Shown here piece after piece: positions 2,433 through 63,797 of a stretch of DNA of 64,000 bases. Under the pieces are notes generated by a model. It was not told the origin of the DNA. It saw only the letters and a list, made by a program, of their open reading frames with translations, and ran no database searches. The position numbers and the translations under genes are program-made. The stretch's first letter is position 1; every line of letters begins with the position of its first letter. The stretch is from Atribacterota bacterium (GTDB lineage Bacteria; Atribacterota; Phoenicimicrobiia; Phoenicimicrobiales; Stramentimicrobiaceae), in contig JAXGNR010000004.1 in the NCBI GenBank assembly GCA_040767965.1, positions 384,001-448,000 on the forward strand, read 5' to 3'.

Positions 2433-2971
2433 GAAAAGAAATAAGAATTTCAGGTTTTGGTGGACAAGGTGTAATTTTAAGCGGAATAATTTTAACACAA
2501 GCGCTAGGCCTGTATGAAAATAAAAAGGTTGCCCAAACTCAAAGTTATGGTCCTGAATCCAGAGGAGGTTCTTGCAAGTCAGAAATTGTCTTTTCGGATA
2601 ATGATATTGACTACATGAAAGTTGATAACCCGGACTATTTTTTAGCTTTTAACGAGATAAGTTACAAGAAATATATTCCCACACTATCAAAAGATTGTTA
2701 TATCCTGATTGACCAAACTTTTATCAGCGAAGTAAATTCAGAGTTTAAAAATGCACATAAAATCTATGCCACTAAAATTGCTGAGACAAAATTACGCGGA
2801 ATCGTGGCTAATTTGGTGATGCTGGGGGCTTTTGCGAAAACCAGTAATGTTGTTTCTTTTGAAGCTTTACAAAAAGCAGTACAAGATATTGTCCCTACTG
2901 CTTTTTGTAAAATGAACCTGGATGCTCTGGAAATCGGATATAAGGAAGTGGATAAAGATGAAGTGTTATGA
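2429..2971 (+). CDS. korC: 2-oxoacid:ferredoxin oxidoreductase gamma subunit
   Basis: IRISGFGGQG, QSYGPESRGG, NLVMLGA. Confidence 0.9.
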   Translation: MRKEIRISGFGGQGVILSGIILTQALGLYENKKVAQTQSYGPESRGGSCKSEIVFSDNDIDYMKVDNPDYFLAFNEISYKKYIPTLSKDCYILIDQTFISEVNSEFKNAHKIYATKIAETKLRGIVANLVMLGAFAKTSNVVSFEALQKAVQDIVPTAFCKMNLDALEIGYKEVDKDEVL

Positions 2972-6700: not shown

Positions 6701-6752
6701 ATTTCCATTGTGGGTTTTTCTATTTATTTTTATTGTATGTGAGAGGGATAGT

Positions 6753-8369
6753 ATGAATATTGCAATTATCGGAACCGGCTATGTCGGTTTAGTAACAGGT
6801 ACCTGCTTAACCAATTTTGGATTATCTGTCACCTGTGTTGATAAAGACAAGAAAAAAATAGATTTATTAAAAAAAGGGGAAATGCCCATTTATGAGCCTG
6901 GTCTAAAAGAGCTAATCTTTAAAAATGTAAAAGAAAACCGCTTAAAATTTACCACTGACTTGAAAAAAGCGGTTGAAGAATCCCAGGTAATTTATATTGC
7001 AGTTGGTACTCCTCAAAGACATGATGGTTCAGCAAACTTGCAACAAGTCGAACGGGTAGCTAAAGATATCGGCAAGTATATTAATGGGTATAAAGTCATT
7101 GTAAATAAATGCACTGTACCAGTAGGAACCGCCCGAAAAATCAAACAAATAATAAGTGATAATTATAAGAATCCTTATATTTCTAGTCATTGCGAGCCTC
7201 CTTCTTCTGGTCATTGCGAGGAGCGAAGCGACGAAGCAATCCCATCAATTCAGCTCAAGTTGGTATTTCAAAAAAAGATAAGGATTCTCCCAGTCATTTC
7301 GATGATCTTTCTTCCGATTTTCATTACGAGAGTACACCATCAGAAGCAATCTGAGTTTACCTCTTCGTCATTGCGAGCGACCAAAGGGAGTGCGGAAATC
7401 TCCTCCTCTTCTTCTTACCCTTCTCCCTTGAGAGAAGATTCTCCTCATATTCCCTCTCCCTTGAGGGGAGAGGGCAGGGTGAGGGTGAAATATTCCTTCG
7501 ACATAATCTCAAATCCCGAATTCCTCCGTGAAGGTTCAGCTGTATACGACTTCACCCATCCAGATAAAATTGTAATCGGTTACGAATCAGAAAAAGCCAA
7601 AATGATAATGCAGGAAATATACCGTCCTTTGTATCTCCTGGACACACCTTTTATCTTTACAACCCTAGAAACAGCAGAGATGATAAAATATGCCTGCAAT
7701 GCTTTTCTGGCAACCAAAATTACCTTTATCAATGAAATAGCCAACTTATGTGATAGGGTAGGAGCAGATGTACATCAGATTGCTAAAGCTATGGGCATGG
7801 ATGGGCGTATCAGTCCAAAGTTTTTACATCCCGGTCCCGGGTATGGCGGATCATGTTTTCCAAAAGATACCAGGGCTTTACAAGTAATTGCAAATGATTA
7901 TAATTATGATTTTAAACTAATCAAAGCGGTAATAGAGGTTAATTGCAGACAAAGAAAAATTGTTGTTGAGAAAATTGAAAAATCACTCTGTACTCTAAGT
8001 GGAAAAACAATAGGTATTTTAGGACTGGCATTTAAACAAAATACTGACGATATCAGGGAATCAGCTGCTATTGATATCATAAAGATGCTATTGCAAAAAG
8101 GAGCCATAATTCGCTGCTTTGATCCTTTGGCAACAGAAAATACCCAAAAGATATTGCCAGAGCTAACCTATTGTCAGGACGAATATGAAGTAGCTAAAAA
8201 TGCTGATGCTTTAGTTGTTTTAACCGAATGGAATCAATTTCGAAACCTGGATTTGAGCAAAATAAAAAATTCAATGAAGAATAATTTTTTATTTGATATA
8301 AAAAATCTTTACGAACCTTCTAAGGTAAAAGAATTAGAGTTTAAATATTTAGGCATGGGAAGAAACTAG
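6753..8369 (+). CDS. ugd: UDP-glucose 6-dehydrogenase carrying a ~105-aa in-frame insertion
   Basis: GTGYVG, IAVGTP, SNPEFLREG, AEMIKYACN, GYGGSCFPKD, GLAFK...DDIRES. Confidence 0.92.
   Translation: MNIAIIGTGYVGLVTGTCLTNFGLSVTCVDKDKKKIDLLKKGEMPIYEPGLKELIFKNVKENRLKFTTDLKKAVEESQVIYIAVGTPQRHDGSANLQQVERVAKDIGKYINGYKVIVNKCTVPVGTARKIKQIISDNYKNPYISSHCEPPSSGHCEERSDEAIPSIQLKLVFQKKIRILPVISMIFLPIFITRVHHQKQSEFTSSSLRATKGSAEISSSSSYPSPLREDSPHIPSPLRGEGRVRVKYSFDIISNPEFLREGSAVYDFTHPDKIVIGYESEKAKMIMQEIYRPLYLLDTPFIFTTLETAEMIKYACNAFLATKITFINEIANLCDRVGADVHQIAKAMGMDGRISPKFLHPGPGYGGSCFPKDTRALQVIANDYNYDFKLIKAVIEVNCRQRKIVVEKIEKSLCTLSGKTIGILGLAFKQNTDDIRESAAIDIIKMLLQKGAIIRCFDPLATENTQKILPELTYCQDEYEVAKNADALVVLTEWNQFRNLDLSKIKNSMKNNFLFDIKNLYEPSKVKELEFKYLGMGRN
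7171..7488 (+). repeat. Stack of short palindromic REP/RPE-like elements inserted in frame in ugd
   Basis: GTCATTGCGAG at 7186, 7210 and 7367, degenerate at 7293 and 7320; full unit GTCATTGCGAGGAGCGAAGCGACGAAGCAATC at 7210-7241; CCCTCTCCCTTGAGGGGAGAGGGCAGGGTGAGGGTG at 7452-7487, partial copy at ~7418. Confidence 0.85.
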
Positions 8370-38018: not shown

Positions 38019-41000
38019 TTAAAACGATATGCCTGTTTGGAAGTAAAGTCGAACTTTTGCTGATTCGGAAATTGGCTTGCTTGCTCCGATGGTAATAATA
38101 AAAGGATTGCTTTGTGCCTGTTTAAACTTAAAATTTATTTCTGCACCTATAGCTGCATTTAATTCTGAAGGGAGTTGAAGCAATTTTCCTTCCCAGGCCT
38201 GTCCTGCATCAAAAAACAAAGAACCGGATATTCTTTCTAAAAAGATTGAAGCCCAATCAAATCCTATCTTTCTTTCTACAGTCTTGATTGGAAAACGATA
38301 TTCGATACTTGCAGATAGAATATTATTCCCACTGAAAGTGGAAGCCGGAAATCCCCTAAGAGGGAAGCTGTTGTTTATTGAACTAAGTTCAGTGCTGTTT
38401 GAATTTCCACCCAGATAAAATTTTTCCTTTTGAGTTAAGCCCTTTGTTGCAAAACCAGCAACAAAGCGTAATGCTATCGATTGATTTGACTCAGACAAAG
38501 GGAAATATTTTCTGCCATCAAATAATAATTTATTGAAGGTTAAATCGCTTCCCAGCAATGTATTGGCATGCTGATAGTTTAATGAGAAAGAAGAGCCAAT
38601 TTCAGGGCCTACAGATGTCTGGTATTTTTCTGTATCATTGTAATCGTAACTTAAAATAAATGAATTAATTTTTCTAAAAGAAAGATTATCACTATTATTT
38701 CCATCATTCTTAAAATTATACAAGTGACTCTGGAAACCCAGGGTAAAATTGCCAGAAAAATAACGCGCTGAATCCTGCTGGGATGTGTATCCTTCATTTT
38801 GGTAATTTAGATTGGCCTGAAATACAGCATTTGTGCTTTTGGCATCAAAAAAATTCTGCAGATGGCCATCTTCCAGAAGTGTTTCGCCTTGCCAGGAAAT
38901 GGAAAAGTTTGGGTTTTGAGAATATTGGATAAAGTGAAAATCATAGTAAAGAGAAGGGGTGAAAACACCTTTTGCCAGTTTAAAAGGAAGATAGTAGTAT
39001 CCCAGATAGTCCTGTGCTGTGCTTGAAAATCCCAGATAAAGATCTTTAGAGGTTAAATTAAAATATGGTATCCAATAAGTTGGAAACAAGCTATCCCAGG
39101 GAGAATATGATACAGGGGACTGTTCTTTGTTTTTGTTCCTGATACAAAGAACCGTCCCCTGTATTGGTTTGTGAGAAATATTTACTTGATACAAAGAACC
39201 GTCCCCTGTATTGGTTTGTGTTTCAAATGACACTGGTTTCCAGAGTAAATTTTTAGTTTCAGCTAAATGTAATTCATAGCCAGTAGAATGATATTGAATG
39301 AAGGCAATTTCCTTTCCATCAGGGGAGCCGGCTGGTTCAAAGGCACCGGTGGTAACATTTGTTAATCTGAATAATATTTTTTCCTTCAATTGATATGCAT
39401 ATAGATTGAAAATACCACTGCGGTCTGAGGTAAAATAAATATATTCACCATCCGCAGACCAGCTTGGGCTTATATCAATGTGTTTGTCTCTGATTATAGG
39501 ATTTAAATATTTAATTTCATTAGCAGTGCCTAGCTCAAGAATATAAATATCTTGATAGCCATTTTGCCACATAGAAAAAGCTATTTTTTTACCATCAGGA
39601 GACCAGACTGGTTGAGAAATTTGTGTGCCATCATTAAAGCTGGTGAGATACAATAGATCTTCAAAAGTTAACATCTCATTTTTTGAAGAAGTAAAATCAG
39701 TATTTTTATTATTTCCCCCAAATAAAGAGGGAAAGGTATTTTCCAGAGAAAACAAAACAAGATTGCTACTGCCCGCGATGTTAATCACAGCTACAACATT
39801 ATATTCTGATTTGCTCGGATGCCAGCCGGGATCTTTGATTCTCATTCCTTCAGAAAGCTGTATTTGATTACCATTTTGTAGATTGAACAAAAACAGGTCA
39901 TAATATTGGTAAAATTCTTTAAAATTTTGCAGCTTGCTATAGATTAAATATTTGTTATCCGGTGATAAAGAGTAAGAGGTTCCATGACCTGTAGTTCTAT
40001 TTATTATAATACTTTCTTCTTTATTGAGTTGATTATATGAACGTATAGTAGGATATAATTCAGGTATATTAACACGATAAAGTAAAATTGCTTTATCTTT
40101 ATTATCTTTTTGCCACCAGATAGGATTATCAGCCCAGTACTGATGATTGGTAATTTGTTCAGAATGCGTTATCTCGCTGAAGCTGTATACATTTTCCAGT
40201 TGCTCCTGGTATTGAGATAACTTTTTGTCTTCCCAGTTTTTATATAAATCGTTTTGGTTAATACCCAGAGCTTTTTTAATAGACCAATTTATTCCCAGTA
40301 GAGGATTGGCACAAAAATATTCACTTATATCCAAAAGTTTTTCTTCTCCGTATTCCTGAGCAATATAATGCACAAGGGATTGACCGTAAATATAGGGGAT
40401 ATTGCCACCGGGCCAGGAAGTAAAATAGGTATCTTTTAACAGTTTTAAGTCTATTGGATTTTCTTCTAAAAAATCCGAACGCAGATACATATCATATCTA
40501 TTGTCTGTCAATCTGCCGCCTGATCCCAATTTACTTTCATAAAAAATTGCCAGTCCTTCAATAGCCCACATTGGCTGTAACGCATTAGGAGCAATGATTT
40601 GTCCCAGGAATAAACGCAAAAAAGATGTTGCTTTGCTGGTCATATCGAAATGAGCTATATGAGTGTATTCATGTGCTATTAATATTTTTAACCAGCTTTT
40701 AAATTTTGTATCAAAGGTTTTAAAACCAGGAGCGGTAAGATTTATTCTGATAGCGGGGTGTGGCAGAACGGTTGCAAATCCATAAACAGAGTCGCTAAAA
40801 TCTTCTAGAATAATTGCTGTTTTTCTATTTTTATTATATGGTTCTCCAAAATAAGGTATTAATTTTTGATATGTTTCTTCTGCTATATCGGCAATGGTAA
40901 GGGCAAATTCCTGGTATTCAAAATGCTGCAAAGTGGGGCTTTTTCCGGGAAAAATAACCAAAAAATGTTCACTTTCTATGGTTTGCCATTCTAGCGAAAG

Positions 41001-41108
41001 ATCATATGGCATTGACCAAACTATCATACTGAGAAAGCCTGTTTTGATTAAGAACAGGCATATTAAAGAAAACAAAAATATTGTTATTTTATTTTTTGTT
41101 TTAAACAT
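38019..41108 (-). CDS. Secreted protein: HExxH peptidase-like domain, TolB/PD40 beta-propeller and Omp85/BamA-TamA-type barrel
   Basis: Signal peptide; AHEYTH...WAIEGLA; repeated PxWSPDG; FYLGG...LRGF, SIEYRFPI, FFDAG; terminal Phe. Confidence 0.8.
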   Translation of the reverse strand: MFKTKNKITIFLFSLICLFLIKTGFLSMIVWSMPYDLSLEWQTIESEHFLVIFPGKSPTLQHFEYQEFALTIADIAEETYQKLIPYFGEPYNKNRKTAIILEDFSDSVYGFATVLPHPAIRINLTAPGFKTFDTKFKSWLKILIAHEYTHIAHFDMTSKATSFLRLFLGQIIAPNALQPMWAIEGLAIFYESKLGSGGRLTDNRYDMYLRSDFLEENPIDLKLLKDTYFTSWPGGNIPYIYGQSLVHYIAQEYGEEKLLDISEYFCANPLLGINWSIKKALGINQNDLYKNWEDKKLSQYQEQLENVYSFSEITHSEQITNHQYWADNPIWWQKDNKDKAILLYRVNIPELYPTIRSYNQLNKEESIIINRTTGHGTSYSLSPDNKYLIYSKLQNFKEFYQYYDLFLFNLQNGNQIQLSEGMRIKDPGWHPSKSEYNVVAVINIAGSSNLVLFSLENTFPSLFGGNNKNTDFTSSKNEMLTFEDLLYLTSFNDGTQISQPVWSPDGKKIAFSMWQNGYQDIYILELGTANEIKYLNPIIRDKHIDISPSWSADGEYIYFTSDRSGIFNLYAYQLKEKILFRLTNVTTGAFEPAGSPDGKEIAFIQYHSTGYELHLAETKNLLWKPVSFETQTNTGDGSLYQVNISHKPIQGTVLCIRNKNKEQSPVSYSPWDSLFPTYWIPYFNLTSKDLYLGFSSTAQDYLGYYYLPFKLAKGVFTPSLYYDFHFIQYSQNPNFSISWQGETLLEDGHLQNFFDAKSTNAVFQANLNYQNEGYTSQQDSARYFSGNFTLGFQSHLYNFKNDGNNSDNLSFRKINSFILSYDYNDTEKYQTSVGPEIGSSFSLNYQHANTLLGSDLTFNKLLFDGRKYFPLSESNQSIALRFVAGFATKGLTQKEKFYLGGNSNSTELSSINNSFPLRGFPASTFSGNNILSASIEYRFPIKTVERKIGFDWASIFLERISGSLFFDAGQAWEGKLLQLPSELNAAIGAEINFKFKQAQSNPFIITIGASKPISESAKVRLYFQTGISF
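39109..39220. repeat. REP-like repeats inserted in frame in the Omp85-family gene
   Basis: 34-bp direct repeat TGATACAAAGAACCGTCCCCTGTATTGGTTTGTG at 39140 and 39187; inverted copy GATACAGGGGACTGTTCTTTGT at 39109. Confidence 0.85.
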
Positions 41109-46886: not shown

Positions 46887-48677
46887 ATGTTTAGTCAAAA
46901 AAATACCAAGACAACCAAAGAGCAAACCAAAAAGAGATTGAACGATTTTTTTGGTCTAATTATAATTTGTTTTATCATCTTGTTGGTTAACCTTTGGTAT
47001 TTACAAATAATTAGGGGGAAAGAATATGAGCAGAGAGCTATTAATAATTGTATTCGATCTTTGGTAGAAGTAGCCCCAAGGGGGGAGCTATATGATCGAC
47101 AGGGGAAATTATTAATAACCAACCGTCCAGCAGTGAATATTTCAGTTATTCCTGCTGAAATTGAAAATTATCACTACTTATCATCAAAAATAGGCCCAAT
47201 TGTAGGTTTAGAAATTGCTGAAATAGATACAAGATTTCAACAACTAAAATCTCGACCATTTCAAGCGCAAACAATCAAGCGAGATTTAGAAAAAGAACAG
47301 ATAGTGGCTATTGAAGAACAAAAATATAAGTTTAAAGGTACAGTATTGACGGTACAACCGGAGAGAAAGTATCTTTATCAGGATTTAGCAGCACATTTGC
47401 TGGGATATGTTAATGAAATAAGTGAAGATGAACTAAAATCATCTACTTTTGGTCATCTTGCAGGTGGAGACATTGTTGGTAAAAGTGGGATTGAAAGATA
47501 TTATGATACTTTCCTTAGGGGAGAAAAGGGAAGCAAAGAAGTGGAAGTTGATGCCCTGGGAAGAGAGATCCTTACCTTGCGTAATATTGAACCTAAGGCA
47601 GGGAACGATTTATACTTAACTATTGACAGCTCTTTACAGCAGTATGCACAAAATTTACTTGCAGGGCAAAAAGGAGCTATTATAGTAAGCGAACTGAAAA
47701 CTGGAAAGATTCTGGTTATGGTAAGCCAACCAACTTTTAATCCTAATTTATTTACCCAGGAAATGTCTTTTACAGAATGGCAAAATATTTCCCAAAGCGA
47801 AGATAATATACTTTGTAATAGAAATATCCAGGGGACTTATCCTCCTGGTTCAGTGTTTAAGTTAATCACTGCTGTTGCAGCTTTAGAAGAAGGCTTGATT
47901 AGTTTAAATGAGAAAATATATTGTTCTGGTTCCCTAAGTTTAGGTGATGTAACTTTTAAATGCTGGAAAGAAGGAGGGCATGGTCATCAGACATTTACTC
48001 AAGCTATAAGTAATTCCTGTAATGTATTTTTTTATACTCTTGGTCAAAGACTGGGAATCGACAAATTAAGTGATTATGCTTCTATGTTCGGTTTGGGTGA
48101 AAAAACGGGCGTTGATATTCCCGGAGAATTGTCAGGATTAGTACCTTCTCAAGAATGGAAAAAAAACACACTGGATCAAGCGTGGTATCCTGGTGATACT
48201 GTAAATTTGTCAATTGGACAAGGTTACTTACTTGCTACTCCTATGCAGATTCATAATATGGCTTGTGCCATTGCAAATGAAGGCATTTCCTATAAGCCAA
48301 TAAATGTTGACAAGATTGTTTCACCTGAAGGAGAAATAATAAAACAGTTTATCCCGGAAATTGCTCGAAAAGTAAATGTGTCATCAGTAACCTTTCAGCA
48401 TGTAAAAGAGGGAATGAGATTGGCAATAAAAGAAGGCACCGGTAAAAATGCCAGATTAGAAGAAATAGAAATTGCCGGTAAAACTGGGACAGCCCAAAAC
48501 CCACAAGGTGAAAACCATGCCTGGTTTGTAGGCTTTGCACCATTTCAAAATTCAGAAATAGGAATAACTATTTTTGTTGAGCATGGAGGAGATGGCAGTC
48601 AAGCTGCTGCACCTCTGGCTGGTAAAATTATAGCTGAGTATTACCGATTAAAAGAAGAAACAAAAGAGGTTAAAATA
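46887..48677 (+). CDS. mrdA: Penicillin-binding protein 2 (in this sequence in frame with rodA)
   Basis: APRGELYDR, GKSGIE, PGSVFK (SxxK), SCN (SxN), KTGTAQ. Confidence 0.9.
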
Positions 48678-49826
48678 ATGGCCACTAAGCGTTCACATTA
48701 CCTTGAATTGATTCAGGATCCCATTTATCGTTCTTTGCGTTTGTTTAAGCATTTTGATTATAGTATATTATTTGCAGTGCTTGGTTTGTGCTTTATAGGT
48801 ATCCTGATAATCTATAGTACCACTCATGTACAAACTGGTGACCAGGGCTCATTGTCTACTATAAAAAAACAATTATTATATGTTGCTGCAGGTGTCTTTT
48901 GTATGTTTTTGGCGGCAGTTATTGATTATCATGAAATTGAAAAAATTGCTCTACCTATTTATATATTGGCTGTTCTGGCTTTAGTATATGTTATTTTGTT
49001 TGGCAGGGTAACTGCTGGGGCAAGAAGATGGATAGAGTTTGCAGGACATGATTTTCAGCCTACTGAATTTGCTAAAATAGCTTTGATGATTTTTTTAAGC
49101 AGCTTCTTAAGCAGGCAGAAAGGCAAATTATCATACAATGTTTATTTTATTGTTCCTTTTTTTATAACAGGGATAATGATGTTGTTGATTTTTAGACAAC
49201 CTGACTTGGGCAGTTCAATGGTTTTCCTGGCAATATTATTGAGTATGCTTTTTGTAGCAGGGATTAAATGGAAGCATATCCTAATGATGCTACTAATCAC
49301 AATTGCCTCTTTTCCGGTGCTGTGGTCTTTTTTAAAAGATTACCAGAAAGACAGAATACTGTTGTTTCTTAATCCAAATCTAGATCCATTAGGGGCAGGT
49401 TATAACATTATTCAATCAAAAGTTGCCATTGGTTCTGGTGGCTTATTTGGACAGGGATTATTTAGCGGCATTCAAAGTCAATTAAAATTTTTGCCAGCAC
49501 AGCATACTGATTTTGTGTTTTCCGTGGTAGGAGAAGAATTAGGTTTTTTTGGTGCTTCAATATTGTTAATTTTATTTTTCTTTCTTCTATGGAGAGGTAT
49601 CAAAATTGCTCAGGAATCTCCTGATTTATTAGGAACATTTTTAGCAACTGGAGTTGTTTCTTTTTATTTTTTTCATATATTTATTAATATTGGAATGGCT
49701 ATGGGATTAATGCCGGCTACCGGACTTCCTCTTTCTTTTATAAGCTATGGAGGTACATTTATGCTGACTAATTTTTTAGCTATGGGATTACTAATGAATG
49801 TTCATTTAAGGAGCATTTATTCATAA
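48678..49826 (+). CDS. rodA: SEDS peptidoglycan glycosyltransferase RodA
   Basis: GARRWI, FQPTEFAK, QPDLG, YQKDR, LPAQHTDF, GEELG, ISYGGT; own SD (GAGG) before ATG 48678. Confidence 0.9.
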   Translation: MATKRSHYLELIQDPIYRSLRLFKHFDYSILFAVLGLCFIGILIIYSTTHVQTGDQGSLSTIKKQLLYVAAGVFCMFLAAVIDYHEIEKIALPIYILAVLALVYVILFGRVTAGARRWIEFAGHDFQPTEFAKIALMIFLSSFLSRQKGKLSYNVYFIVPFFITGIMMLLIFRQPDLGSSMVFLAILLSMLFVAGIKWKHILMMLLITIASFPVLWSFLKDYQKDRILLFLNPNLDPLGAGYNIIQSKVAIGSGGLFGQGLFSGIQSQLKFLPAQHTDFVFSVVGEELGFFGASILLILFFFLLWRGIKIAQESPDLLGTFLATGVVSFYFFHIFINIGMAMGLMPATGLPLSFISYGGTFMLTNFLAMGLLMNVHLRSIYS

Positions 49827-55047: not shown

Positions 55048-56343
55048 ATGTTTTCTGATAAAGTAATTATATTTGTAAAAGCTGGCTCTGGTGGTGATGG
55101 TGCAGTAAGTTTTAGGAGGGAACGCCATATTCCTAAAGGTGGCCCTGACGGTGGAGATGGTGGTAAAGGTGGAGATGTATATATAGAAGTTGATTCTCAT
55201 ACCAAGACTTTAATTCAATTATATCGCAAGCCTCATTGCAAAGCTGAACATGGAGATCATGGTAAAGGTCAGAAGAAAAACGGAAAAGATGGACAGGATT
55301 TGATTATTAAAGTCCCTGCAGGGACTGTTGTTGAGGATTTAGAAAAAGAAAGGATTATTGCAGATCTGGCAGAACCTGAAAGAAAAATTTTGATTGCAAA
55401 AGGAGGGTCCGGGGGAAAAGGAAATTATCGTTTTAGAAACTCCCAAAGACAAACTCCTAGATTTGCCCAAAAAGGAGAAAAAGGGGAAGAGTTAAAACTA
55501 AAATTAAATTTGAAATTAATTGCCGATGCGGGGCTAGTAGGTTTTCCGAATGCCGGTAAATCTACTCTTTTGTCTCGTGTTTCAGCCGCTAAACCTAAAA
55601 TAGCTGATTATCCTTTTACAACAATGGAACCATATTTGGGGGTAGTTAAAGTTGATGAGGAGAATTCTTTTGTACTTGCTGATATTCCAGGAATAATAGA
55701 AGGTGCTCATCAGGGAGTTGGTCTTGGAACACGATTTCTAAAGCATATTGAAAGAACCAAAGTTTTGATTCATATTATTGATGGAGCAAAAAGTATTAAT
55801 CAGGGTATAGATGATATTTATAATGATTATCTTATTATCGAGAATGAATTAAAAAACTATGCCCAAATTTTAGAAAAAAAAGAAAAAATAATTGCAGTAA
55901 ATAAATGCGATTTACCAGAAGTACAGTCTCGGAAGAAAGAAATCAAAGAATATTTTTTAAAAAAAGGAATTCCGGTTTTTTTTATATCTGCAGTTAGCGG
56001 AGAAGGGATCTCTGACTTAATTTACCAGGTGTTTAACAGAATATCTTTTTTTGATTCCCAAGAAAAGGAAGAACAAAGCTCACAGCAACAAGAAAAAGAA
56101 GAAATTAGCTATTATAAATATGAGCCAGATTTTACTGTAAAAAAACAAGGAGGCTTGTTTATTGTGGAAGGCAGTAAAATTGTCAAACTGGTTAATCAAT
56201 TTGATCTAGAGAACCCGCAAGCCCTGGAATATTTCCAAAAAAAATTTAAAAGTAGCGGAGTTGAAAAGGTATTACTCAAGGAAGGAATTACTGATGGAGA
56301 TAAAGTGAAAATTGGAGAGAAGACTTTTTACTTTTATTCATAG
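55048..56343 (+). CDS. obgE: GTPase ObgE/CgtA with C-terminal OCT domain
   Basis: Gly-rich Obg fold, GFPNAGKS, YPFTT, DIPG, NKCD. Confidence 0.95.
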   Translation: MFSDKVIIFVKAGSGGDGAVSFRRERHIPKGGPDGGDGGKGGDVYIEVDSHTKTLIQLYRKPHCKAEHGDHGKGQKKNGKDGQDLIIKVPAGTVVEDLEKERIIADLAEPERKILIAKGGSGGKGNYRFRNSQRQTPRFAQKGEKGEELKLKLNLKLIADAGLVGFPNAGKSTLLSRVSAAKPKIADYPFTTMEPYLGVVKVDEENSFVLADIPGIIEGAHQGVGLGTRFLKHIERTKVLIHIIDGAKSINQGIDDIYNDYLIIENELKNYAQILEKKEKIIAVNKCDLPEVQSRKKEIKEYFLKKGIPVFFISAVSGEGISDLIYQVFNRISFFDSQEKEEQSSQQQEKEEISYYKYEPDFTVKKQGGLFIVEGSKIVKLVNQFDLENPQALEYFQKKFKSSGVEKVLLKEGITDGDKVKIGEKTFYFYS

Positions 56344-56415
56344 ATACTGTATAATATTATGTTAAATAAATTTCTTTTAATTTTATAAGATGATTTAAAA
56401 TATAAAGGGAAAAAA

Positions 56416-59400
56416 ATGATTTGCTGGTTTAAAATATTAAAAAAATGCAAAAATAAAATATCACAAATTCTTTTGCTATCTATTATTTTCGTTATGTTTC
56501 TTTTTCTAGAAGTAAGCAGTTTTAACTTAGATAGCCCAAGAGTAGCAGTCTATTATTTTCATAACCGATCGGAAAATCTTGAATTGAATTGGCTAGAAGA
56601 GGATCTGCCTTTTTCTATTGGTCAATCATTATCCAAGATTCAAGAAATAGATTTTGTTAATTTATCTGAAGCTGATACTGTTGCTGATTACCACTTATAT
56701 AAAAATATGATTCCTAAGAAAGATATCAGAATGTTTGGTCAATTGGCAAATTTACTACAGGTAGACTTTCTTTTTTCTGGCAATTTTACCCAGGAGAGCA
56801 GTAATCAAATCGGATTGGATTTATTGATGTATTTAACATCAACAAATCATTTGGTTGAGTTTCGCAGAATGTCAGCTCAATTAAATAATTTAGCTAATCT
56901 GGAAGAACGAATAATTAATATAATTTTGCAAGAAGCAGATGTTGAAATGAACAGTACTTCTTTAGAAAATGTCATTGAAGAAGGATTGGATAACAGGAAT
57001 AGTAAATCTATTGATTTAAGTGAGAATATTTCCAGTGAAATATCTATTCCTGTGCAACCAGAACCAAAAGAAGAGCCTCTTTATTCTGAACCTGTATTAC
57101 GAGACCAAGCAATACAAAACAATTCATTAGTATTAGAGTATTACAAAAAAGCGCTGGATTTAAAAGAAAGAGCTATTCAGGAATATGGAGGTGTCGATTA
57201 CCCCAGCAAGCCTTTATGGAATGAGGCGATTCAAAATGCCACCAAAACAGTAGAACTAGATCCTGATTTTGCCGATGGATACTATTTATTATACGAGATT
57301 TATCAAAAAACTAAATGGATTGCCAGAGAAATAGAAAGCTTGGAGCATTATATTGCTACAATAAGGCGAACGAATAAACAGGTTAGCCTGCAAGAATTTT
57401 CAACCTTACTTACCAGACTTGCTCATTTAAAATTCAATGCTGGGGATACCACAACAGCAGTTAGTTATTTAGAAGAGGCAATTTCTTACAATCCAAATAA
57501 TATCGAAACAAGAAATTATTTAATGGAGATATATTACAATACAGGACAAACAACAAAAGCCTTACAACAAGCAGAAGAGATTAAGAGAATTAAACCAGAC
57601 AGTATTGAATTAGACTGGTATTCTAGAAGAACACAAAGAATAAATCTTTACGGAAGGGAAGCATTTGAAAATTACGAGAACGGTTATAATCTATATATTG
57701 CAAAGAAATTTCAGGAATCAATCAGTTATTTAGAGCAAGCTATACGCATGGCACCAGCTTTCAAGGATGCGCATTATTACCTTGGATTGTCTTATTATCA
57801 TTCCAACAACTTGATATCTGCTATAAAACACTGGGAAGAAGCAGTAAAACTAGATCCTTTTGATACCCATTCCATAATTTACCTTAACAAGGCTGTTGAA
57901 GAAAAAGAATATGGAAGAGAAGCAGTTTGGAGTTTCAATGAAGGCTACGAACACTATATTGCAGGAGAATATCAAGAAGCACTATCTCTTTTCCGAAAAA
58001 CTGTTAATATAAATCCAAATTATGAAAAAGCAAGAATGCTTTTAATGCGGACTTATTATCATTTGGACCAGATGGACGAATATCTGGCAGAAAGAAAAAG
58101 AATTACTGAAAATGTTAATTTTACCGGTGATCTGGAAAGGGAGTTATATCAAGTGGCTTATGACTTCTTCTCCATAAAGGAGTACACTGTAGCCTTAGAA
58201 AAATTGCAGGAATCCTTAGATATAAATCCAGATTATTTAGAATCAAGATTTTTGATAGCAGAAACATGGTACCAGTTAGGAAACTATAGTGAGGCAAATA
58301 TTCATTACCAATATATAATATCCAATTACAGTCAAAGCGAATACTATGCAGATTCCTTGTTAGGCAGTGGCTGGTGTTACTTTTTATCAGAAGATTACCG
58401 CCAGGCTGAAAATTGTTTGAAACTGTTTATTGATAATTTTCCTCAAAGTTCTTTTTACCAGGAAGCATTATACAAACTTGGAAGAACTTATTTTATGCAG
58501 GAGGATTATCATAAAACAATAGAGACTTTAGAGAGTTTGATTAACAGAGAATTTGAACAACAAAAATATTCTATTTCTGAAATAAATTTCTTTATCGGAC
58601 AATCTTATTTTTGGCTGGAAAATTATGGAAAAGCGAAAGAGATTTTATTGTCAATTATAGAAAATGATCCTTATTTTGAAATGATGAACGAAACAAAATA
58701 TTTTTACAGTTTTTCGTTGTTTAGAGAAGGTCGATATCAAGAAGCTATTTCTTTGCTGGAAGAGTTATCTATTCATGCTGACATTCAACTTCAGCAAGAA
58801 GTAAATTATCTTTTGGGAAGAGCATTGCTTGAAATAAAAGACTATGATAAAGTAATTAGGATTAATCGTTCTCTATTAGAAAATGATCTAAATGAAAGCA
58901 TGTTAGCAAATGTTTTGTTTGATTTGGGAATAGCATATTCCAGAAATAAAAATGATGCTGAAGCAGTGAAATACTTCCAGAGAGTATTAGAAGAAGTGCC
59001 GTTGGGAGAGCTGGCAAGGCTAAGTAAGATTGAACTGGCACAGAGTTATTTTTATTTAGAAAGATATGTTGACTCCATAAATGTCCTGAAAGACATTTCT
59101 TCTAAAGAAGCTTTGGAATTGAAAATTGATGCTGCCAGAGCTATGGGCGAGACCGATCTTTTGTTATTATCATTACAGGAGTATGAACAAAAATACCCTG
59201 ATGGCTCTATTTCTGCTGATGGATATTATTCAATAGCAATTTCTCAGTACAATGAAGGAAAATACCAGGAAGCTTATGATACTTTTAAAATATTAGAAGG
59301 TATGGAAATTATTGATGAAATGGAGCAAAAAGTAACTTACTGGCAAGGTTTAAGTCAATATAAACTAAAAAACTATTCTCAAGCAAAAGATTATTTTCAA

Positions 59401-60144
59401 TTGATAGACTATTATACGGGAAACGAAACTGCTATTAGCGCTTTATATATGCTGGCCGAGACATATTATCAAGAAGGAAATTATACTGAAGCAATTAAAT
59501 ATTATCAAGAATTTTTAGAAAACTTTAAAACGAATTCTTTAGCAGAAACTGCCTATTATGGACTGGCCTGGAGCTATTTAAATAACCGTGATTACCCAAA
59601 AAGCATAGAAACATTAGAAATACTGATTGAAAATTACCCGGATAGTCAGTTAGTCGAAGAAGGTTATTTTTTATTAGGTAAAATCCATTTTCTTGCTGGT
59701 GAAAATGATAATTCCCGGACTAATTTAATAGATTTTGTAAATAATTATCCAAACAGTATCTTTAAGGAAGAATCAATTTATATAATTGCACAAATCTATC
59801 TAGAAGAACAGAATTGGATTGATAGTATATTATATTTTGAAAACCTGAAAAATGATTACCCTGAAAGCAATTATTTATCAGGCTCATTATATGGACTTTG
59901 TTTGAGCTATTATAAAATGGAGGAATATTCCAAAGCTCTTGTCAATGGTGAACAATATTTAAACTACTTTGATGTTGGTTCACTCAAATGTGATGTTTTA
60001 TACATTATTGCAATCTGTCAAGAAGAGCTGGGAAATATTGCAGCGGCAGTTGAAAGATATGAACAGATAATATCTGAGTGTCCAAATAGTGCTTATATTG
60101 AAAGTGCAAAGGGGCAAATTGAATTCCTTGTTCCAGGACAGTGA
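56416..60144 (+). CDS. Large secreted TPR protein (N-terminal TolB_N/CsgG-like domain, CpoB/BamD-like repeats)
   Basis: Signal peptide; RVAVYYFHN...NWL; many TPRs, the later ones ending in ..YP.S. Confidence 0.75.
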   Translation: MICWFKILKKCKNKISQILLLSIIFVMFLFLEVSSFNLDSPRVAVYYFHNRSENLELNWLEEDLPFSIGQSLSKIQEIDFVNLSEADTVADYHLYKNMIPKKDIRMFGQLANLLQVDFLFSGNFTQESSNQIGLDLLMYLTSTNHLVEFRRMSAQLNNLANLEERIINIILQEADVEMNSTSLENVIEEGLDNRNSKSIDLSENISSEISIPVQPEPKEEPLYSEPVLRDQAIQNNSLVLEYYKKALDLKERAIQEYGGVDYPSKPLWNEAIQNATKTVELDPDFADGYYLLYEIYQKTKWIAREIESLEHYIATIRRTNKQVSLQEFSTLLTRLAHLKFNAGDTTTAVSYLEEAISYNPNNIETRNYLMEIYYNTGQTTKALQQAEEIKRIKPDSIELDWYSRRTQRINLYGREAFENYENGYNLYIAKKFQESISYLEQAIRMAPAFKDAHYYLGLSYYHSNNLISAIKHWEEAVKLDPFDTHSIIYLNKAVEEKEYGREAVWSFNEGYEHYIAGEYQEALSLFRKTVNINPNYEKARMLLMRTYYHLDQMDEYLAERKRITENVNFTGDLERELYQVAYDFFSIKEYTVALEKLQESLDINPDYLESRFLIAETWYQLGNYSEANIHYQYIISNYSQSEYYADSLLGSGWCYFLSEDYRQAENCLKLFIDNFPQSSFYQEALYKLGRTYFMQEDYHKTIETLESLINREFEQQKYSISEINFFIGQSYFWLENYGKAKEILLSIIENDPYFEMMNETKYFYSFSLFREGRYQEAISLLEELSIHADIQLQQEVNYLLGRALLEIKDYDKVIRINRSLLENDLNESMLANVLFDLGIAYSRNKNDAEAVKYFQRVLEEVPLGELARLSKIELAQSYFYLERYVDSINVLKDISSKEALELKIDAARAMGETDLLLLSLQEYEQKYPDGSISADGYYSIAISQYNEGKYQEAYDTFKILEGMEIIDEMEQKVTYWQGLSQYKLKNYSQAKDYFQLIDYYTGNETAISALYMLAETYYQEGNYTEAIKYYQEFLENFKTNSLAETAYYGLAWSYLNNRDYPKSIETLEILIENYPDSQLVEEGYFLLGKIHFLAGENDNSRTNLIDFVNNYPNSIFKEESIYIIAQIYLEEQNWIDSILYFENLKNDYPESNYLSGSLYGLCLSYYKMEEYSKALVNGEQYLNYFDVGSLKCDVLYIIAICQEELGNIAAAVERYEQIISECPNSAYIESAKGQIEFLVPGQ

Positions 60145-60211
60145 TTGAACAAAAGTATTAGAAATGATAAAAATGTATTAGATTTTATGAAATAGAGGAG
60201 GCTACTATTTA

Positions 60212-60889
60212 ATGTTTGAACTTTTTTATAAGGGCGGTTTCTTGATGTATCCTATTTTTTTCTGTTCTTTGCTGGCAATTGCCATTTTTTTCGAAAGGAT
60301 GTTTTACTTAAAAAGTATCAAAACATCAACAAGAAAATTTGGCAACCGTATAGCCGATTTGGTTAGAAAAGGAAACATCAATTTTGCAATCACTGCCTGT
60401 CGAAAGAATTTTACTCCTATATCCCAGATAATTCTGGCAGCTTTAGTGAAACATGGCAGCTCTAGGGATGAAATAAAAGAGGTCATTGAAGATACTGCAA
60501 GACATGAGATTGCAGCTCTGGAGCGGAATATGCCTATTCTGGGAACAATCGGAAATATTACACCTTTGTTAGGACTTTTGGGAACTGTATTTGGAATGAT
60601 TAAATCTTTCCAGGTTATCTCTGTTGTTGGTGTCGGAAACCCGGAAGCTTTAGCAGGAGGCATATCAGAAGCTCTGCTAACCACTGCTTTTGGTCTTTCA
60701 GTGGCAATCCCAACAATTGTAGCTTACAATTATTTATCTAATCGTATTGACAGGCAAGTTAAAGAAATGGAGTCCACTTCTGTAGAAATACTGGAATTAT
60801 TATCAGAGAATAATAATAATTCAAATATCCAATTTAAAGAGGCGCAAGAGGAAGGTGTAAAAATAGATGAAATTTTATCACATCAGTAA
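60212..60889 (+). CDS. exbB: MotA/TolQ/ExbB proton channel protein
   Basis: GGFLMYPI, PLLGLLGTVFGMI, AGGISEALLTTAFGL. Confidence 0.9.
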   Translation: MFELFYKGGFLMYPIFFCSLLAIAIFFERMFYLKSIKTSTRKFGNRIADLVRKGNINFAITACRKNFTPISQIILAALVKHGSSRDEIKEVIEDTARHEIAALERNMPILGTIGNITPLLGLLGTVFGMIKSFQVISVVGVGNPEALAGGISEALLTTAFGLSVAIPTIVAYNYLSNRIDRQVKEMESTSVEILELLSENNNNSNIQFKEAQEEGVKIDEILSHQ

Positions 60890-61277
60890 AAAAAGACTTG
60901 GTTTTGATTTAACACCTTTGATTGATGTGGTGTTCTTATTGCTAATCTTTTTTATGCTTACTACTACTTTTATTAATATTGAAAGCGGTGTAAAAGTCGA
61001 TTTACCAAGCGGAGATTTTGCTTCAGTAACCGAGAGGCAGAATTTAATAGTTGCCATTACTGAAAATAATGTAATATATCTGAACAACAATATAGTTGAT
61101 CCGAATAATTTAGCTTCCATGATAAGGGAAGAAATTGGCGAAATGACTGATTCTTTGGTTGTTTTGGAAGCAGATCAGAATATTACGCACGGAAAAGTTG
61201 TTCGGGTTATGGATTTGATAAAAAAAGGTGGAGCAGAGAGGATAGCTATTGCTACCCGTCCATCTGAAGGCCAATAG
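60867..61277 (+). CDS. exbD: ExbD/TolR protein
   Basis: DLTPLIDVVFLLLIFFM with the essential Asp, V.LP, LEAD...HG.VV.VMD. Confidence 0.92.
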   Translation: MKFYHISKKRLGFDLTPLIDVVFLLLIFFMLTTTFINIESGVKVDLPSGDFASVTERQNLIVAITENNVIYLNNNIVDPNNLASMIREEIGEMTDSLVVLEADQNITHGKVVRVMDLIKKGGAERIAIATRPSEGQ

Positions 61278-61339
61278 CAATATTAGTTAAAAAATATATT
61301 AGCAAAATTAGCAATACAAAAATAAGGTGATATTTTAAG

Positions 61340-62827
61340 ATGACTGGATACAGAGCAAAAAGAAGAAAACTACGATCTAAAAGCTATTTAGGCCGTTCCT
61401 TTCTTATTTCTTTAATCATAAATTTTTTGTTTATTTTTTTCTTTAGCAATCTTACTTCTTTTGATTTATTAAAAATGCCAGAAGAGGAAATTATTCTGGT
61501 TACCATGGTTGAATTACCAACATTGCGAGAACCTGTAACGGCAAGACCAGAAATTGAAGCAGAAGAGCCTGTGGCTGAATTAAGCACTATGCCCAGAGTA
61601 GAGCCCGCCCTCCCAGAACCAGCAAGAGAACAGGAAATAGAAACACAGCCAGCAGCAGAAAGCCAGGATGAAATAGCTGAAATTGTCAGTACTCCTCGTG
61701 CTGAAGTCAAAATACCTGAAATAGAAATACCGTCCAGTGAAGAAATGCCAGCAATGCAAGAACAAGCTCCTGCCAGGCAGGATGTTCAAGTTGCATCTGG
61801 ATCACTTGCTCCATCTATTACCAGCAGAAGAGATATCGAAGGAGAAGTGCTAGAACCAGGACAATATGAGATTCAGGCAAGTATGGGACAACCAGGAAGA
61901 GAAAGAATTGAATCAACTTATGGAAACACCGTTACTCCTGGACAAATAAGTAATTTACCAAGAACTATTGAGAAGGAGTCCCCTTTTGGAAACAGGCCAC
62001 TTGCAGTTACTATTGATAATGCAGACGCCGCCCGTCCACAAAGCGGGCTTGATAAAGCGAATATCGTGTATGAAGTATTGGCAGAAGGTGGGATCACCCG
62101 TTTTCTGGCTATTTATGCAGCCCAAGAAGCAGATGTAGTAGGGCCTGTACGTAGTGCCAGACCATATTTTATTACTAAAGCTATGGAGCACAGCGCTATT
62201 TATGTACATGCAGGGGAAAGTCCTGATGCAGCTAGATTTATCAGAGAAGAAAGGATTGATGATATTAATGAACTAGTTCATTATCAGCCATTTTGGAGAT
62301 CTTCTGATCGAAGACCACCTCATAACTTATATGCATCGACTGAACAGTTAAGAGAAGAGGCTAAAAATATAGGTTATCTTGAAATGATAAACAGAGATAG
62401 TTTTCAGTTTGAAGCAGATTCTAATCAGATACTTACCGGAGCTGATATCCAAAGAATTGATATAAGGTATAATGTCAATTACTCAGTAAGATATCAATAT
62501 AATCCAGAAACAAAGAGGTATATTAGATTTATCAATGATATTCCTCATATCGATGCAGAAACAGGAATGCAATTGCAGGCAAAAAATATTATTATCCAGC
62601 ACAGCGAGAAGAAAGTTCTTGACGAAGAAGGTAGGCTCGCTATCGATTTACTTGGAAGAGGAGATGGACTTATTATTTTTAATGGTAAATCAGAAGAAAT
62701 TACCTGGAAAAAGGAAACTTTAACATCCAAGACATATTTTTATAATAAAAATGGTGACCGATTAGCAATACAACCTGGTAATGTCTGGATTCAGATTACT
62801 CATCCAGATACACAGGTTAGATACTAA
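61340..62827 (+). CDS. TonB-like energy-transducer N-terminus fused to a DUF3048 (YerB-like) domain
   Basis: TM with SxxxN, ILVTMV D-box-like motif, Pro/Glu-rich linker; then RPLAVTIDN...RPQSGL...EGGITRF...GPVRSAR...PHNLY. Confidence 0.8.
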   Translation: MTGYRAKRRKLRSKSYLGRSFLISLIINFLFIFFFSNLTSFDLLKMPEEEIILVTMVELPTLREPVTARPEIEAEEPVAELSTMPRVEPALPEPAREQEIETQPAAESQDEIAEIVSTPRAEVKIPEIEIPSSEEMPAMQEQAPARQDVQVASGSLAPSITSRRDIEGEVLEPGQYEIQASMGQPGRERIESTYGNTVTPGQISNLPRTIEKESPFGNRPLAVTIDNADAARPQSGLDKANIVYEVLAEGGITRFLAIYAAQEADVVGPVRSARPYFITKAMEHSAIYVHAGESPDAARFIREERIDDINELVHYQPFWRSSDRRPPHNLYASTEQLREEAKNIGYLEMINRDSFQFEADSNQILTGADIQRIDIRYNVNYSVRYQYNPETKRYIRFINDIPHIDAETGMQLQAKNIIIQHSEKKVLDEEGRLAIDLLGRGDGLIIFNGKSEEITWKKETLTSKTYFYNKNGDRLAIQPGNVWIQITHPDTQVRY

Positions 62828-62891
62828 TGAATCAAAGTCAGCAAAGCTAGAAAATATTTTCTTTAATGATCAGTTATTTACAGGATTATTT

Positions 62892-63797
62892 ATGGATCAG
62901 CAACATGAACTTATCGAGAGTTTTTTAGATTATTTATATTTAGAAAGAGGATTAGCATATAATACAATTGCATCTTATCGTTATGATCTGGATAAGTTTC
63001 ATAATTTTGTTATTAAACAAAAAAGGATAACTTTTAAAAAAGTTAATAGAGAAATATTAACAGAATACTATCAATACCTTATCAATAAAAAATTAGAAAT
63101 AAGTTCTATTTTTCGTAATTTAGTAGCCTTGAAGATGTTTTTCAGATATCTTTTAGTAGAAGAAATTATAGGAAAAGACCTCTCCCATTTTATTGAATTT
63201 CCCCGAATGGGGAAAAAGTTACCAGAAGCTCTTAGTATTGAAGATGTTAACAAACTTTTGGCAGAGGAAAATTTTAAAGGCAAGTTAGGGAAAAGAGATA
63301 AGGCAATACTGGAATTACTTTATGCTACAGGGATGCGCGTTTCAGAATTAATTAATCTAAAAAGGAATGATTTAAATCTTGAACATCGATTATTAAAATG
63401 TACAGGTAAGGGCAATAAAGAAAGATGGATTCCAATTACTGACAAAGCCCATGCGGCTTTATTTGACTATATAGCTTATAACAGACCAAAAATACTAAAG
63501 AAAGCCGATCTGGAAATATTATTCTTGAATAGTCGTGGAGGTCCTATTACAAGGCAAGGAGTTTTTCTATTGATAAAAAATTATTCTAAAATGTCTGGCA
63601 TCAAAATAAATGTTACTCCGCATACCTTAAGACATACTCTGGCTACTCACTTAATTGAAAACGGTGCTGACTTAAGATCAGTTCAAGAGATACTGGGCCA
63701 TGCAGATATCTCTACTACACAAATATATACTCATGTTAGCCGAAAATGGGTTAAGGATGAATATTTTAAGGCATTTCCAAGAGCATATGAAGAGTAG
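62892..63797 (+). CDS. xerD: Site-specific tyrosine recombinase XerD
   Basis: LERGLA.NT..Y..DL, LYATGMRVSE, GKG.KER, PHTLRH, LGHADISTTQIYTH. Confidence 0.9.
   Translation: MDQQHELIESFLDYLYLERGLAYNTIASYRYDLDKFHNFVIKQKRITFKKVNREILTEYYQYLINKKLEISSIFRNLVALKMFFRYLLVEEIIGKDLSHFIEFPRMGKKLPEALSIEDVNKLLAEENFKGKLGKRDKAILELLYATGMRVSELINLKRNDLNLEHRLLKCTGKGNKERWIPITDKAHAALFDYIAYNRPKILKKADLEILFLNSRGGPITRQGVFLLIKNYSKMSGIKINVTPHTLRHTLATHLIENGADLRSVQEILGHADISTTQIYTHVSRKWVKDEYFKAFPRAYEE

Follow-up and report, generated by a model that had tools for sequence, protein, structure and literature searches.

A candidate motor-coupled force transducer with a YerB-like (DUF3048) head encoded behind exbB-exbD genes in Atribacterota

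TonB and TolA share the transmembrane motif S-x3-H-x6-L-x3-S (the SHLS motif), and TonB S16 and H20 contact S34 and W38 of ExbB, while the segment 45-ISVTMVT-51 of Escherichia coli TonB binds the ExbD dimer by strand addition (PMC12215075; PMC10907165). Transducers with a different head were described by Williams-Jones et al. (2025, Mol Biol Evol; PMC12204202), who reported TolA/TonB-like proteins carrying a vWA head and encoded behind TPR-tolQ-tolR-tolR, their function being unknown. The text of the same paper restricts curated Tol-Pal systems to Gracilicutes, notes that tonB genes frequently lie apart from exbBD, and cites earlier work that detected TonB in Atribacteria. Atribacterota are described as having an outer membrane with lipid A genes (PMC13408713), and the envelope of Atribacter laminatus as consisting of three membrane-like layers, the outer two of which enclose a 7-nm space and a thin layer of 2.2 nm (PMC7736352). 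Here we analyze a 64,000-nucleotide stretch of DNA, hereafter the window, from an Atribacterota bacterium (assembly GCA_040767965.1, contig JAXGNR010000004.1, positions 384,001 to 448,000), in which four co-directional genes encode a 1242-aa tetratricopeptide repeat (TPR) protein, an ExbB/TolQ-like and an ExbD/TolR-like motor subunit, and a 495-aa protein that we call the arm. An earlier reading of the letters alone, hereafter the original prediction, had proposed a new Ton/Tol-type envelope machine at this locus; its open reading frames (ORFs), their coordinates, and their shared direction are exactly as given there (Table 1).

The arm has the three parts of a TonB/TolA transducer, namely a transmembrane helix with an S-x3-N/H face, a motor-box-like strand, and a disordered Pro-rich linker, and DUF3048 replaces TonB_C or TolA_C at its C-terminus. 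Its start codon follows an AGGTGA ribosome-binding site at about 9 nt, and the N-terminus is basic, with 8 Arg/Lys among the first 19 residues. The single transmembrane segment was modeled by AlphaFold2 as a helix at aa 20-36, has its Kyte-Doolittle maximum at aa 21, and carries the motif S24-x3-N28-x6-F35-x3-T39, to be compared with the SHLS motif. Asparagine fully replaces TonB His20 functionally in E. coli, as stated in a preprint (bioRxiv 10.1101/2022.09.26.509584), and the original prediction had likewise called H20N functional. The linker contains 28 Glu, 19 Pro, and 15 Ala in its 154 residues between aa 60 and 213 and is predicted to be disordered, with predicted local distance difference test (pLDDT) values of 38-57. 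Short conserved motifs punctuate it (PEI, PEP, EVKxPE, ExTYG, and EKESPF), and its G+C content of 0.42, against about 0.31 in the flanks, fits its Pro/Glu/Ala codons. The arm thus possesses the Pro-rich periplasm-spanning linker of the TonB family, with a C-terminus made of DUF3048 and DUF3048_C instead of TonB_C (PF03544). Neither TonB_C nor TolA gave a Pfam match in the arm at E<=0.1, NCBIfam returned 0 families, and the locus lacks the TolA C-terminal domain with tolB and pal in the operon that marks TolA/Tol-Pal. Based on its C-terminal domain, we therefore place the arm outside both the TonB and the TolA families, although its sequence suggests that it would work as they do. The basic N-terminus, the single helix with S24xxxN28, the ILVTMV word at aa 52-57 (nt 61493-61510), the linker, estimated at ~160 aa, and the lack of a visible TonB or TolA C-terminal domain had all been read from the sequence beforehand, and scripted checks and profile searches bore them out.

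The C-terminal part of the arm is a complete DUF3048 unit with the fold of YerB. Pfam DUF3048 matched aa 214-346 (1e-47, 162.5 bits; cut-off 25) and DUF3048_C matched aa 373-484 (3.3e-30, 105.2 bits; cut-off 25), and in a phmmer search Bacillus subtilis YerB (Protein Data Bank (PDB) 2psb) matched the C-terminal 280 residues at 2.7e-46. The AlphaFold2 model, built from 137 sequences, has a pLDDT above 90 in the head, and Foldseek aligned the arm model with 2psb at E 6.2e-28, 34% identity, and a TM-score of 0.88 by target; profile, phmmer, and fold thus agree with the DUF3048/YerB-like domain first placed from about nucleotide 61994. When DUF3048 families were skipped, an ESM Atlas search with aa 214-495 gave no usable match. 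Eight residues are invariant in the 137 DUF3048 sequences and all of them are kept here (N227, E245, R271, S272, R274, R396, W456, and G480); a further 25 head columns are nearly invariant, and the invariant columns suggest a conserved pocket.

DUF3048 is a large family, with 7545 representative clusters at E<=1e-3 in an exhaustive search of representatives. Among the 150 matches listed, most are about 330-420 aa long and align only from about residue 200 of the arm, and the typical consensus starts with a short N-terminal stretch that includes a G-C pair resembling a lipobox. Judged by source names and record titles, DUF3048 without the arm occurs mostly in Bacillota and Patescibacteria, with a few cases in Chloroflexota and Actinobacteria. 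An outer membrane is absent from most Bacillota and Patescibacteria. The domain is fused to the Beta-lactamase/DD-peptidase-like PF00144 in three proteins (P0152, P0283, and P0286) and elsewhere to PEGA, to dockerin (once with two DUF3048 copies), or to TPR (P0181; L073 8708-11371); the proteins in which we noted DUF3048 fusions are P0152, P0283, P0286, P0121, P0190, P0181, and L073. No function of YerB or DUF3048 was found in the literature searched, as judged by the search listings.

Both motor subunits are well-supported family members that keep the channel residues. The ExbB/TolQ-like protein scored 123.7 bits against MotA_ExbB (PF01618; cut-off 22.9) and the ExbD/TolR-like protein 103.5 bits against ExbD (PF02472; cut-off 25.4). 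By alignment, T125, E153, and T158 of the former correspond to T145, E173, and T178 of E. coli TolQ, and D20 in the transmembrane segment of the latter corresponds to D25 of E. coli ExbD. These four residues are invariant in six Atribacterota sequences, which agrees with the conserved Thr/Glu/Asp channel residues claimed at the outset. NCBIfam ranked TolQ/TolR above ExbB/ExbD for both proteins, with all equivalog cut-offs unreached: TolQ 116.4 bits (cut-off 221) and ExbB 83.2 bits (cut-off 206.2) for the first, and TolR as the best profile at 77.6 bits (cut-off 127.3) for the second, in which the ExbD equivalog cut-off was not reached either.

Across Atribacterota, down to an arm identity of 35-38%, both the build of the arm and its location directly after a giant TPR gene and exbB-exbD have been kept. 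In a survey of the 120 best homologue clusters, 105 were full length and the other 15 were N-terminally cut, starting inside or after the helix. The N-terminal motif G-[RK]-S-F-x-x-S was found in 105 of the 120, and Asn occupies the position four residues after the Ser in 105/105. The 105 full-length homologues also conserve a strand of the form [ITV]-x-V-[ST]-[LM]-[VI] followed by E-[LIVM]-P, which lies 29 residues past the Ser in 93 of them. Hence the strand singled out in the original prediction holds as a pattern, while the exact word ILVTMV occurs in only 1/105. In an end-to-end alignment of 19 Atribacterota homologues (49-83% identity), S24, N28, F35, V54, E58, and P60 are invariant. Named sources of arm homologues were Atribacterota, Atribacteria, Caldatribacteriota, or unclassified bacteria and metagenomes, with no other named source; one close homologue, P0005, has a source name starting "outer membrane biosynthesi...", an outer-membrane label given by some pipeline. 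Among the DUF3048 matches listed, a matching N-terminus was present in P0084, P0123, and P0125 (plus fragments), and the N-terminus of P0132 is of this kind too, followed by a long linker rich in Lys and Glu. The canonical S-x3-H is found in six deeper relatives (P0125, P0272, P0273, P0274, P0132, and P0270).

A tree of the DUF3048 domain (FastTree, LG+gamma, 165 leaves, none dropped) gathered 33/33 forms with a TonB-like N-terminus and 4 N-truncated relatives into one clade with a support of 0.83, and on this tree the TonB-like-N forms are of single origin. The groups with S-x3-H branch at the base or as sister to the Caldatribacterium/L005 group, and the taxon of P0125 and P0132 is given by their placement inside the Atribacterota clade of the tree only. 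A genome scan for DUF3048 yielded 80 loci, 6 from Atribacterota and 74 from elsewhere. All six Atribacterota loci align with the arm over its full length, and the order TPR-exbB-exbD-arm-xerD was found in 5/5 of those with upstream DNA (L001-L005; arm identity 38-69%), the sixth (L006) being uninformative for synteny with 81 nt upstream only. The proposed recurrence of exbB-exbD next to a gene combining helix, strand, and DUF3048 is therefore borne out at every informative Atribacterota locus. At L005, a single base belongs to both the stop codon of exbD and the start codon of the arm gene.

Outside Atribacterota, an ExbB match within 10 kb was found at 0/74 DUF3048 loci, and the sole ExbD-like match was a weak one (6e-4) about 7 kb off in L024. 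The commonest neighbor clusters at these 74 loci, each named from one representative, form two contexts. The first, mostly in Clostridia, is yqfD-phoH-7TM_HD-ybeY-dgkA-DUF3048-cdd-era-recO (e.g. L007 4516-11666), with Era-like neighbors at 35, YbeY at 29, PhoH at 26, and DgkA at 14 of the 74 loci. The second, mostly in records titled Patescibacteria, is unknown-FtsW/RodA-L25-DUF3048 (e.g. L024 5284-9703), often with two tandem DUF3048 genes; FtsW/RodA occurs at 16/74 loci and L25 at 19/74.

The predicted complex of two copies of ExbD (aa 36-136) with the arm segment aa 38-82 scored 0.48 (runs 0.45, 0.48, and 0.56); the highest-scoring of 3 controls reached 0.01. In calibration, the mark was reached by 58/80 solved complexes and 2/110 mismatched pairs, and scores of 0.60 or under comprised 7/80 solved complexes and both passing mismatches. 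The runs share at least 61% of their contacts, with a partner pLDDT of at least 44. Because an E. coli ExbD:D-box complex has already been solved, the pass may reflect likeness only. Taken together, the modeling lends weak support to docking of the arm strand on the ExbD dimer, which had been put forward with the original prediction.

The TPR protein is dominated by its repeats (TPR_6 3.6e-68, TPR_2 1.3e-65, and YfiO 7.5e-23 in Pfam). It scored 159.9 bits for BamD and 207.7 bits against TIGR02795 tol_pal_ybgF (cut-off 90.1), a score that sums 8 repeat stretches in a protein that matches many TPR families equally well. Its most hydrophobic 19-mer begins at aa 18. In an AlphaFold2 model built from just 6 sequences, aa 40-170 have a pLDDT of 85-96, and a Foldseek search with this domain gave 37 matches in the PDB at E<=1e-3, their probabilities reaching 1.00 and their TMq values lying at 0.32-0.43 over about 125-150 columns. 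The matches include the TolB N-domain (2w8b, 1crz, and 4r40), the LpoB C-domain (4q6z), PelC, GNA1162, and FlgT, so that aa 40-175 are TolB N-terminal/LpoB-like at the level of the fold. Since the first 230 aa matched nothing in Pfam at E<=10, the TolB_N label given to this protein in the original prediction holds for the fold and has no Pfam support.

Table 1. Features of the four-gene cluster, in window coordinates
Feature	Position	Strand	Basis
Four co-directional genes: TPR-exbB-exbD-DUF3048 arm	56416-62827	+	ORF list
Promoter-like site between obg and the TPR gene (TTTACT-17-TATAAT), where the operon may start	56327..56355	+	10/12 consensus matches
Periplasmic TPR protein, 1242 aa: hydrophobic signal/anchor, TolB_N/LpoB-like domain, long TPR arrays resembling CpoB(YbgF)/BamD	56416..60144	+	Pfam, NCBIfam, AlphaFold2
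TolB N-terminal/LpoB/PelC-like alpha-beta domain of the TPR protein, aa ~40-175	56533..56940	+	AlphaFold2 + Foldseek
ExbB/TolQ-like stator subunit, 225 aa	60212..60889	+	Pfam MotA_ExbB 5e-36
ExbD/TolR-like stator subunit, 136 aa, 23-nt overlap with exbB	60867..61277	+	Pfam ExbD 1.1e-29
TonB/TolA-like arm with YerB-like (DUF3048) head, 495 aa	61340..62827	+	ORF, Pfam, phmmer, AlphaFold2
Single transmembrane helix, aa ~20-41, S24-x3-N28-x6-F35, behind a basic cytoplasmic N-terminus	61397..61462	+	AlphaFold2, Kyte-Doolittle
Candidate motor-box (D-box-like) strand ILVTMV, aa 52-57, then E58-L-P60	61493..61510	+	Script check, alignment
Disordered Pro/Glu/Ala-rich linker, aa 58-213	61511..61978	+	Composition, AlphaFold2, conserved positions
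DUF3048 N- and C-terminal domains, YerB-like fold, aa 214-495	61979..62827	+	Pfam, phmmer, AlphaFold2, Foldseek

The genes of the cluster are tightly packed, with intergenic gaps of 62-72 nt except where exbB and exbD overlap, and no terminator-like sites were found on the + strand between them. The promoter-like site upstream of the TPR gene is a consensus match alone, and such sites are near chance in the region (51 vs 41.5 in shuffles, sd 6.2). On the 5' side lie mreD, a pbp2-rodA fusion, rng, rplU, rpmA, and obg; tolB and pal are absent from the cluster, and by profile and ORF check the gene 3' of the arm is xerD. As listed, the XerD ORF (62781-63797, +) shares 47 nt with the 3' end of the DUF3048 gene, an overlap that arises solely from the use of an in-frame start further upstream. 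Its match to the XerD profile begins at residue 46, and the homologues in L001-L005 are 300-308 aa long, so the true start of xerD is probably an internal Met near 62892. No gene for a TonB-dependent receptor was found in the 64-kb window.

Several other features of the window deserve mention. Directly 3' of mreD, a single 979-aa ORF (46887-49826, +) matches PBP2/MrdA over aa 17-587 (TIGR03423, 663 bits; cut-off 455) and RodA over aa 624-975 (TIGR02210, 396 bits; cut-off 336.7), so that a transpeptidase and a SEDS polymerase form a single polypeptide. On the opposite strand, a 1029-aa protein (38019-41108, -) has a TolB-type beta-propeller (TIGR02800, 2.6e-26, aa 497-620), PD40 repeats, and, at aa 813-1008, weak Omp85/BamA-like matches (2.5e-7 and 9.4e-7) that fall well short of the cut-offs; the protein is similar to the "OMP-TolB-like" proteins described in PMC12204202 and lies inside a polysaccharide-synthesis cluster 15 kb from the motor genes. 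A succinyl-CoA-ligase beta-type protein is divided between two overlapping ORFs in different frames (2922-3614 and 3556-4119, both +), one for ATP-grasp_2 (230 aa) and the other for Ligase_CoA (187 aa), which represent either a split gene or a frameshift. A 553-aa UDP-glucose/GDP-mannose dehydrogenase (6708-8369, +) has its N-domain match in two stretches and its central domain only from aa 321, which suggests an insertion of 100 or more residues.

From the arm's build and its conserved place behind the motor genes, we consider it probable that the arm is a motor-coupled force transducer driven by the proton motive force (PMF), with a YerB-like head. We are less certain that the target of the head is the cell wall, to which the spread of the domain, its fusions, and its neighbors point. 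In the mechanism we propose, the ExbB/TolQ-ExbD/TolR stator would sit in the cytoplasmic membrane as a 5:2 complex, by homology, with its proton-path residues conserved. The transmembrane helix of the arm would dock outside the ExbB ring through its S24/N28 face, by analogy with TonB S16/H20 and TolA S18/H22, and the periplasmic dimer of ExbD would capture the arm's strand (aa 52-57) in the way known for the TonB D-box, a step for which computation gives weak support. The Pro/Glu-rich linker of about 155 residues would then carry a pull or a rotation to the YerB-like head. Because all residues invariant in the domain are retained here, and the domain otherwise occurs as short-tethered lipoproteins or anchored surface proteins, mostly in Bacillota and Patescibacteria, the ligand of the head is most likely common to both envelope types, which would make peptidoglycan or a wall precursor a better candidate than an outer-membrane TonB box or TolB. 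The periplasmic TPR protein would be the likely scaffold or partner, given its conserved adjacency and the TPR-DUF3048 fusions seen elsewhere. The probable role of the whole would be an energized coupling of the inner membrane to the wall and outer layers in growth or division, as a functional counterpart of Tol-Pal.

Several observations weigh against this reading. The N-terminal stretch (aa 1-217) alone matched nothing in Pfam at E<=10, TonB_N included, and an ESM Atlas language-model search with aa 1-210 gave best scores of 0.83-0.84 for unnamed clusters, the nearest named cluster being TonB_N at 0.76, below the useful level. The SHLS motif is kept in part only, with Asn at +4, Phe, and Thr at +15, and the structural test of arm-ExbD binding gave weak support. 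Synteny comes from five loci of one phylum and may therefore in part be shared descent. YerB is the only relative of the head found by Foldseek in the PDB, the next match having an E of 0.065, so we draw no functional analogy from the fold; the domain contexts of DUF3048 are suggestive as to the ligand and nothing firmer. Finally, given the frequent separation of tonB from exbBD and the reported detection of TonB in Atribacteria (PMC12204202), the motor could drive a canonical TonB encoded at another site of this genome, either in addition to the arm or in its place.

That last point leads to an account in which there is no coupling at all: the arm would be a YerB-like surface protein whose lipoprotein anchor was swapped for a transmembrane helix and spacer, while the motor serves an unlinked TonB or TolA. 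DUF3048 does work without a motor elsewhere, as the absence of ExbB near the 74 other loci indicates, and the unlinked tonB genes, the report of TonB in Atribacteria, the lack of a TonB_N profile match, and the low arm-ExbD score (0.48) all suit it. A plain anchor, however, would need no invariant S-x3-N/H face, no invariant strand at a fixed offset, and no E-x-P; moreover, anchor type, linker, and motor adjacency co-occur, and in one clade only, and the genes are tightly packed, down to the base shared by the exbD stop and the arm start in L005. We consequently regard this account as unlikely. It is also doubtful, to a slightly greater degree, that a coupled arm is aimed at the outer membrane, its head binding an outer-membrane protein, such as the TolB-propeller/Omp85-like one encoded in the window, or the TPR protein. 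The system would then serve uptake, the handling of outer-membrane lipids or proteins, or surface motility, as has been proposed for Ton, Tol, or the vWA transducers. The outer membrane with lipid A genes (PMC13408713), the BamD- and CpoB-like repeats of the TPR protein, and a linker whose length far exceeds the 7 nm reported to separate the outer from the middle layer in A. laminatus (PMC7736352) would all accommodate such a target, as would the 1029-aa TolB-propeller/Omp85-like protein in the window (38019-41108), but the PD40/Omp85-like gene is 15 kb off, on the opposite strand, and within a polysaccharide gene cluster. Here again the head, with all invariant residues of a domain mostly from Bacillota and Patescibacteria, argues for a ligand common to both envelope types.

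Two further explanations can be set aside. Motor-based defence systems exist, and the cluster might be an anti-phage system built on a MotAB/ExbBD-like motor, Zorya-like in kind. PADLOC, run on all four proteins, gave nothing at E<=0.01, and the locus lies among housekeeping genes (mreD, pbp2-rodA, rng, rplU, rpmA, obg, and xerD) at a position conserved across the phylum; we reject this explanation as very improbable. The rise in G+C within the linker could mimic foreign sequence, as if a frameshift or misassembly had joined a tonB-like gene to a DUF3048 gene, and we found nothing else in favor of such an artefact. The same full-length build recurs in 105/120 best clusters, whose sources are several and independent, and 6 species genomes carry it as well. 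This speaks against a frameshift or stop between a TonB gene and a DUF3048 gene, which had been set beforehand as fatal to the proposal. Conservation across more than 100 protein clusters and 6 species genomes thus rules out a gene-fusion artefact, whose probability we consider negligible.

If the arm is a motor-coupled transducer as we favor, it would be a second head, unrelated to vWA, on TonB/TolA-type transducers, and would strengthen the idea that 5:2 motors have wider periplasmic jobs, beyond nutrient uptake and Pal mobilization. It would offer a testable lead for DUF3048/YerB, a family with a solved structure, and the natural His-to-Asn change, with His in deeper relatives, provides a ready comparison for how the transducer helix communicates with ExbB. 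A more far-reaching version, which we think somewhat unlikely, holds that DUF3048/YerB is an ancient wall-directed binder or enzyme that is passive in bacteria without an outer membrane, and that Atribacterota wired it to a 5:2 proton motor so that the PMF works directly on the wall without Pal, TolB, or TonB boxes, the TPR protein being the partner. If true, this would amount to a Tol-Pal counterpart outside Gracilicutes, in a phylum whose unusual three-layer envelope is poorly understood, and would provide the first clue to what a domain family of thousands of clusters does. Since cultured Atribacterota strains now exist, the idea can be tested.

Compared with E. coli TonB, the arm shares the basic N-terminus, the single transmembrane helix with a Ser and a polar residue four positions on, and the Pro-rich linker, and its ILVTMV lies at a similar distance from the Ser as 45-ISVTMVT-51; the motor shares with ExbB-ExbD the conserved Asp and the Thr ring. 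TonB has H20 and TonB_C, whereas the arm has N28 and lacks TonB_C, for which reason no binding of a TonB box is expected, and the motor here scores closer to TolQ/TolR. With E. coli Tol-Pal, the locus has in common the motor-motor-transducer order, a TPR protein with CpoB (YbgF)-like repeats, and TolQ and TolR as best profiles. It differs in lacking the TolA C-terminal domain, tolB, and pal, and in that the TPR gene comes first. CpoB is a small periplasmic protein of the tol-pal operon, whereas the TPR protein here has 1242 aa with 8 matching stretches and additionally carries the TolB-N/LpoB-like fold. The head fold is common to B. subtilis YerB (2PSB), the type member of DUF3048, and the C-terminal 280 residues of the arm, yet YerB-type DUF3048 proteins have a short N-terminus and no motor genes nearby, while in the arm a TonB-like stretch of 213 residues precedes the head.

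The nearest parallel is provided by the vWA-headed transducers (PMC12204202), which share with the arm a transmembrane helix with an SHLS-type motif, partly kept in the arm, a predicted motor box, a disordered linker of ~100+ residues, a globular head unrelated to TonB_C or TolA_C, and a TPR-tolQ-tolR gene context. They have His in the motif, where most members of the arm family have Asn, and come with a heterologous tolR pair instead of a single tolR-like gene; their hosts are Proteobacteria, PVC, Bacteroidetes, and Rhodothermaeota, and that of the arm is Atribacterota. The heads themselves are distinct, vWA in the one case and DUF3048/YerB-like in the other: the arm gave no vWA match, and the fold of its head matches YerB only. 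The terms "DUF" and "YerB" are absent from the main text of PMC12204202. The original prediction was thus right about a new head and overstated the novelty of the machine, since vWA-headed transducers had been described in 2025; with that precedent, we view the arm as a new head on a known principle rather than as a new class of machine.

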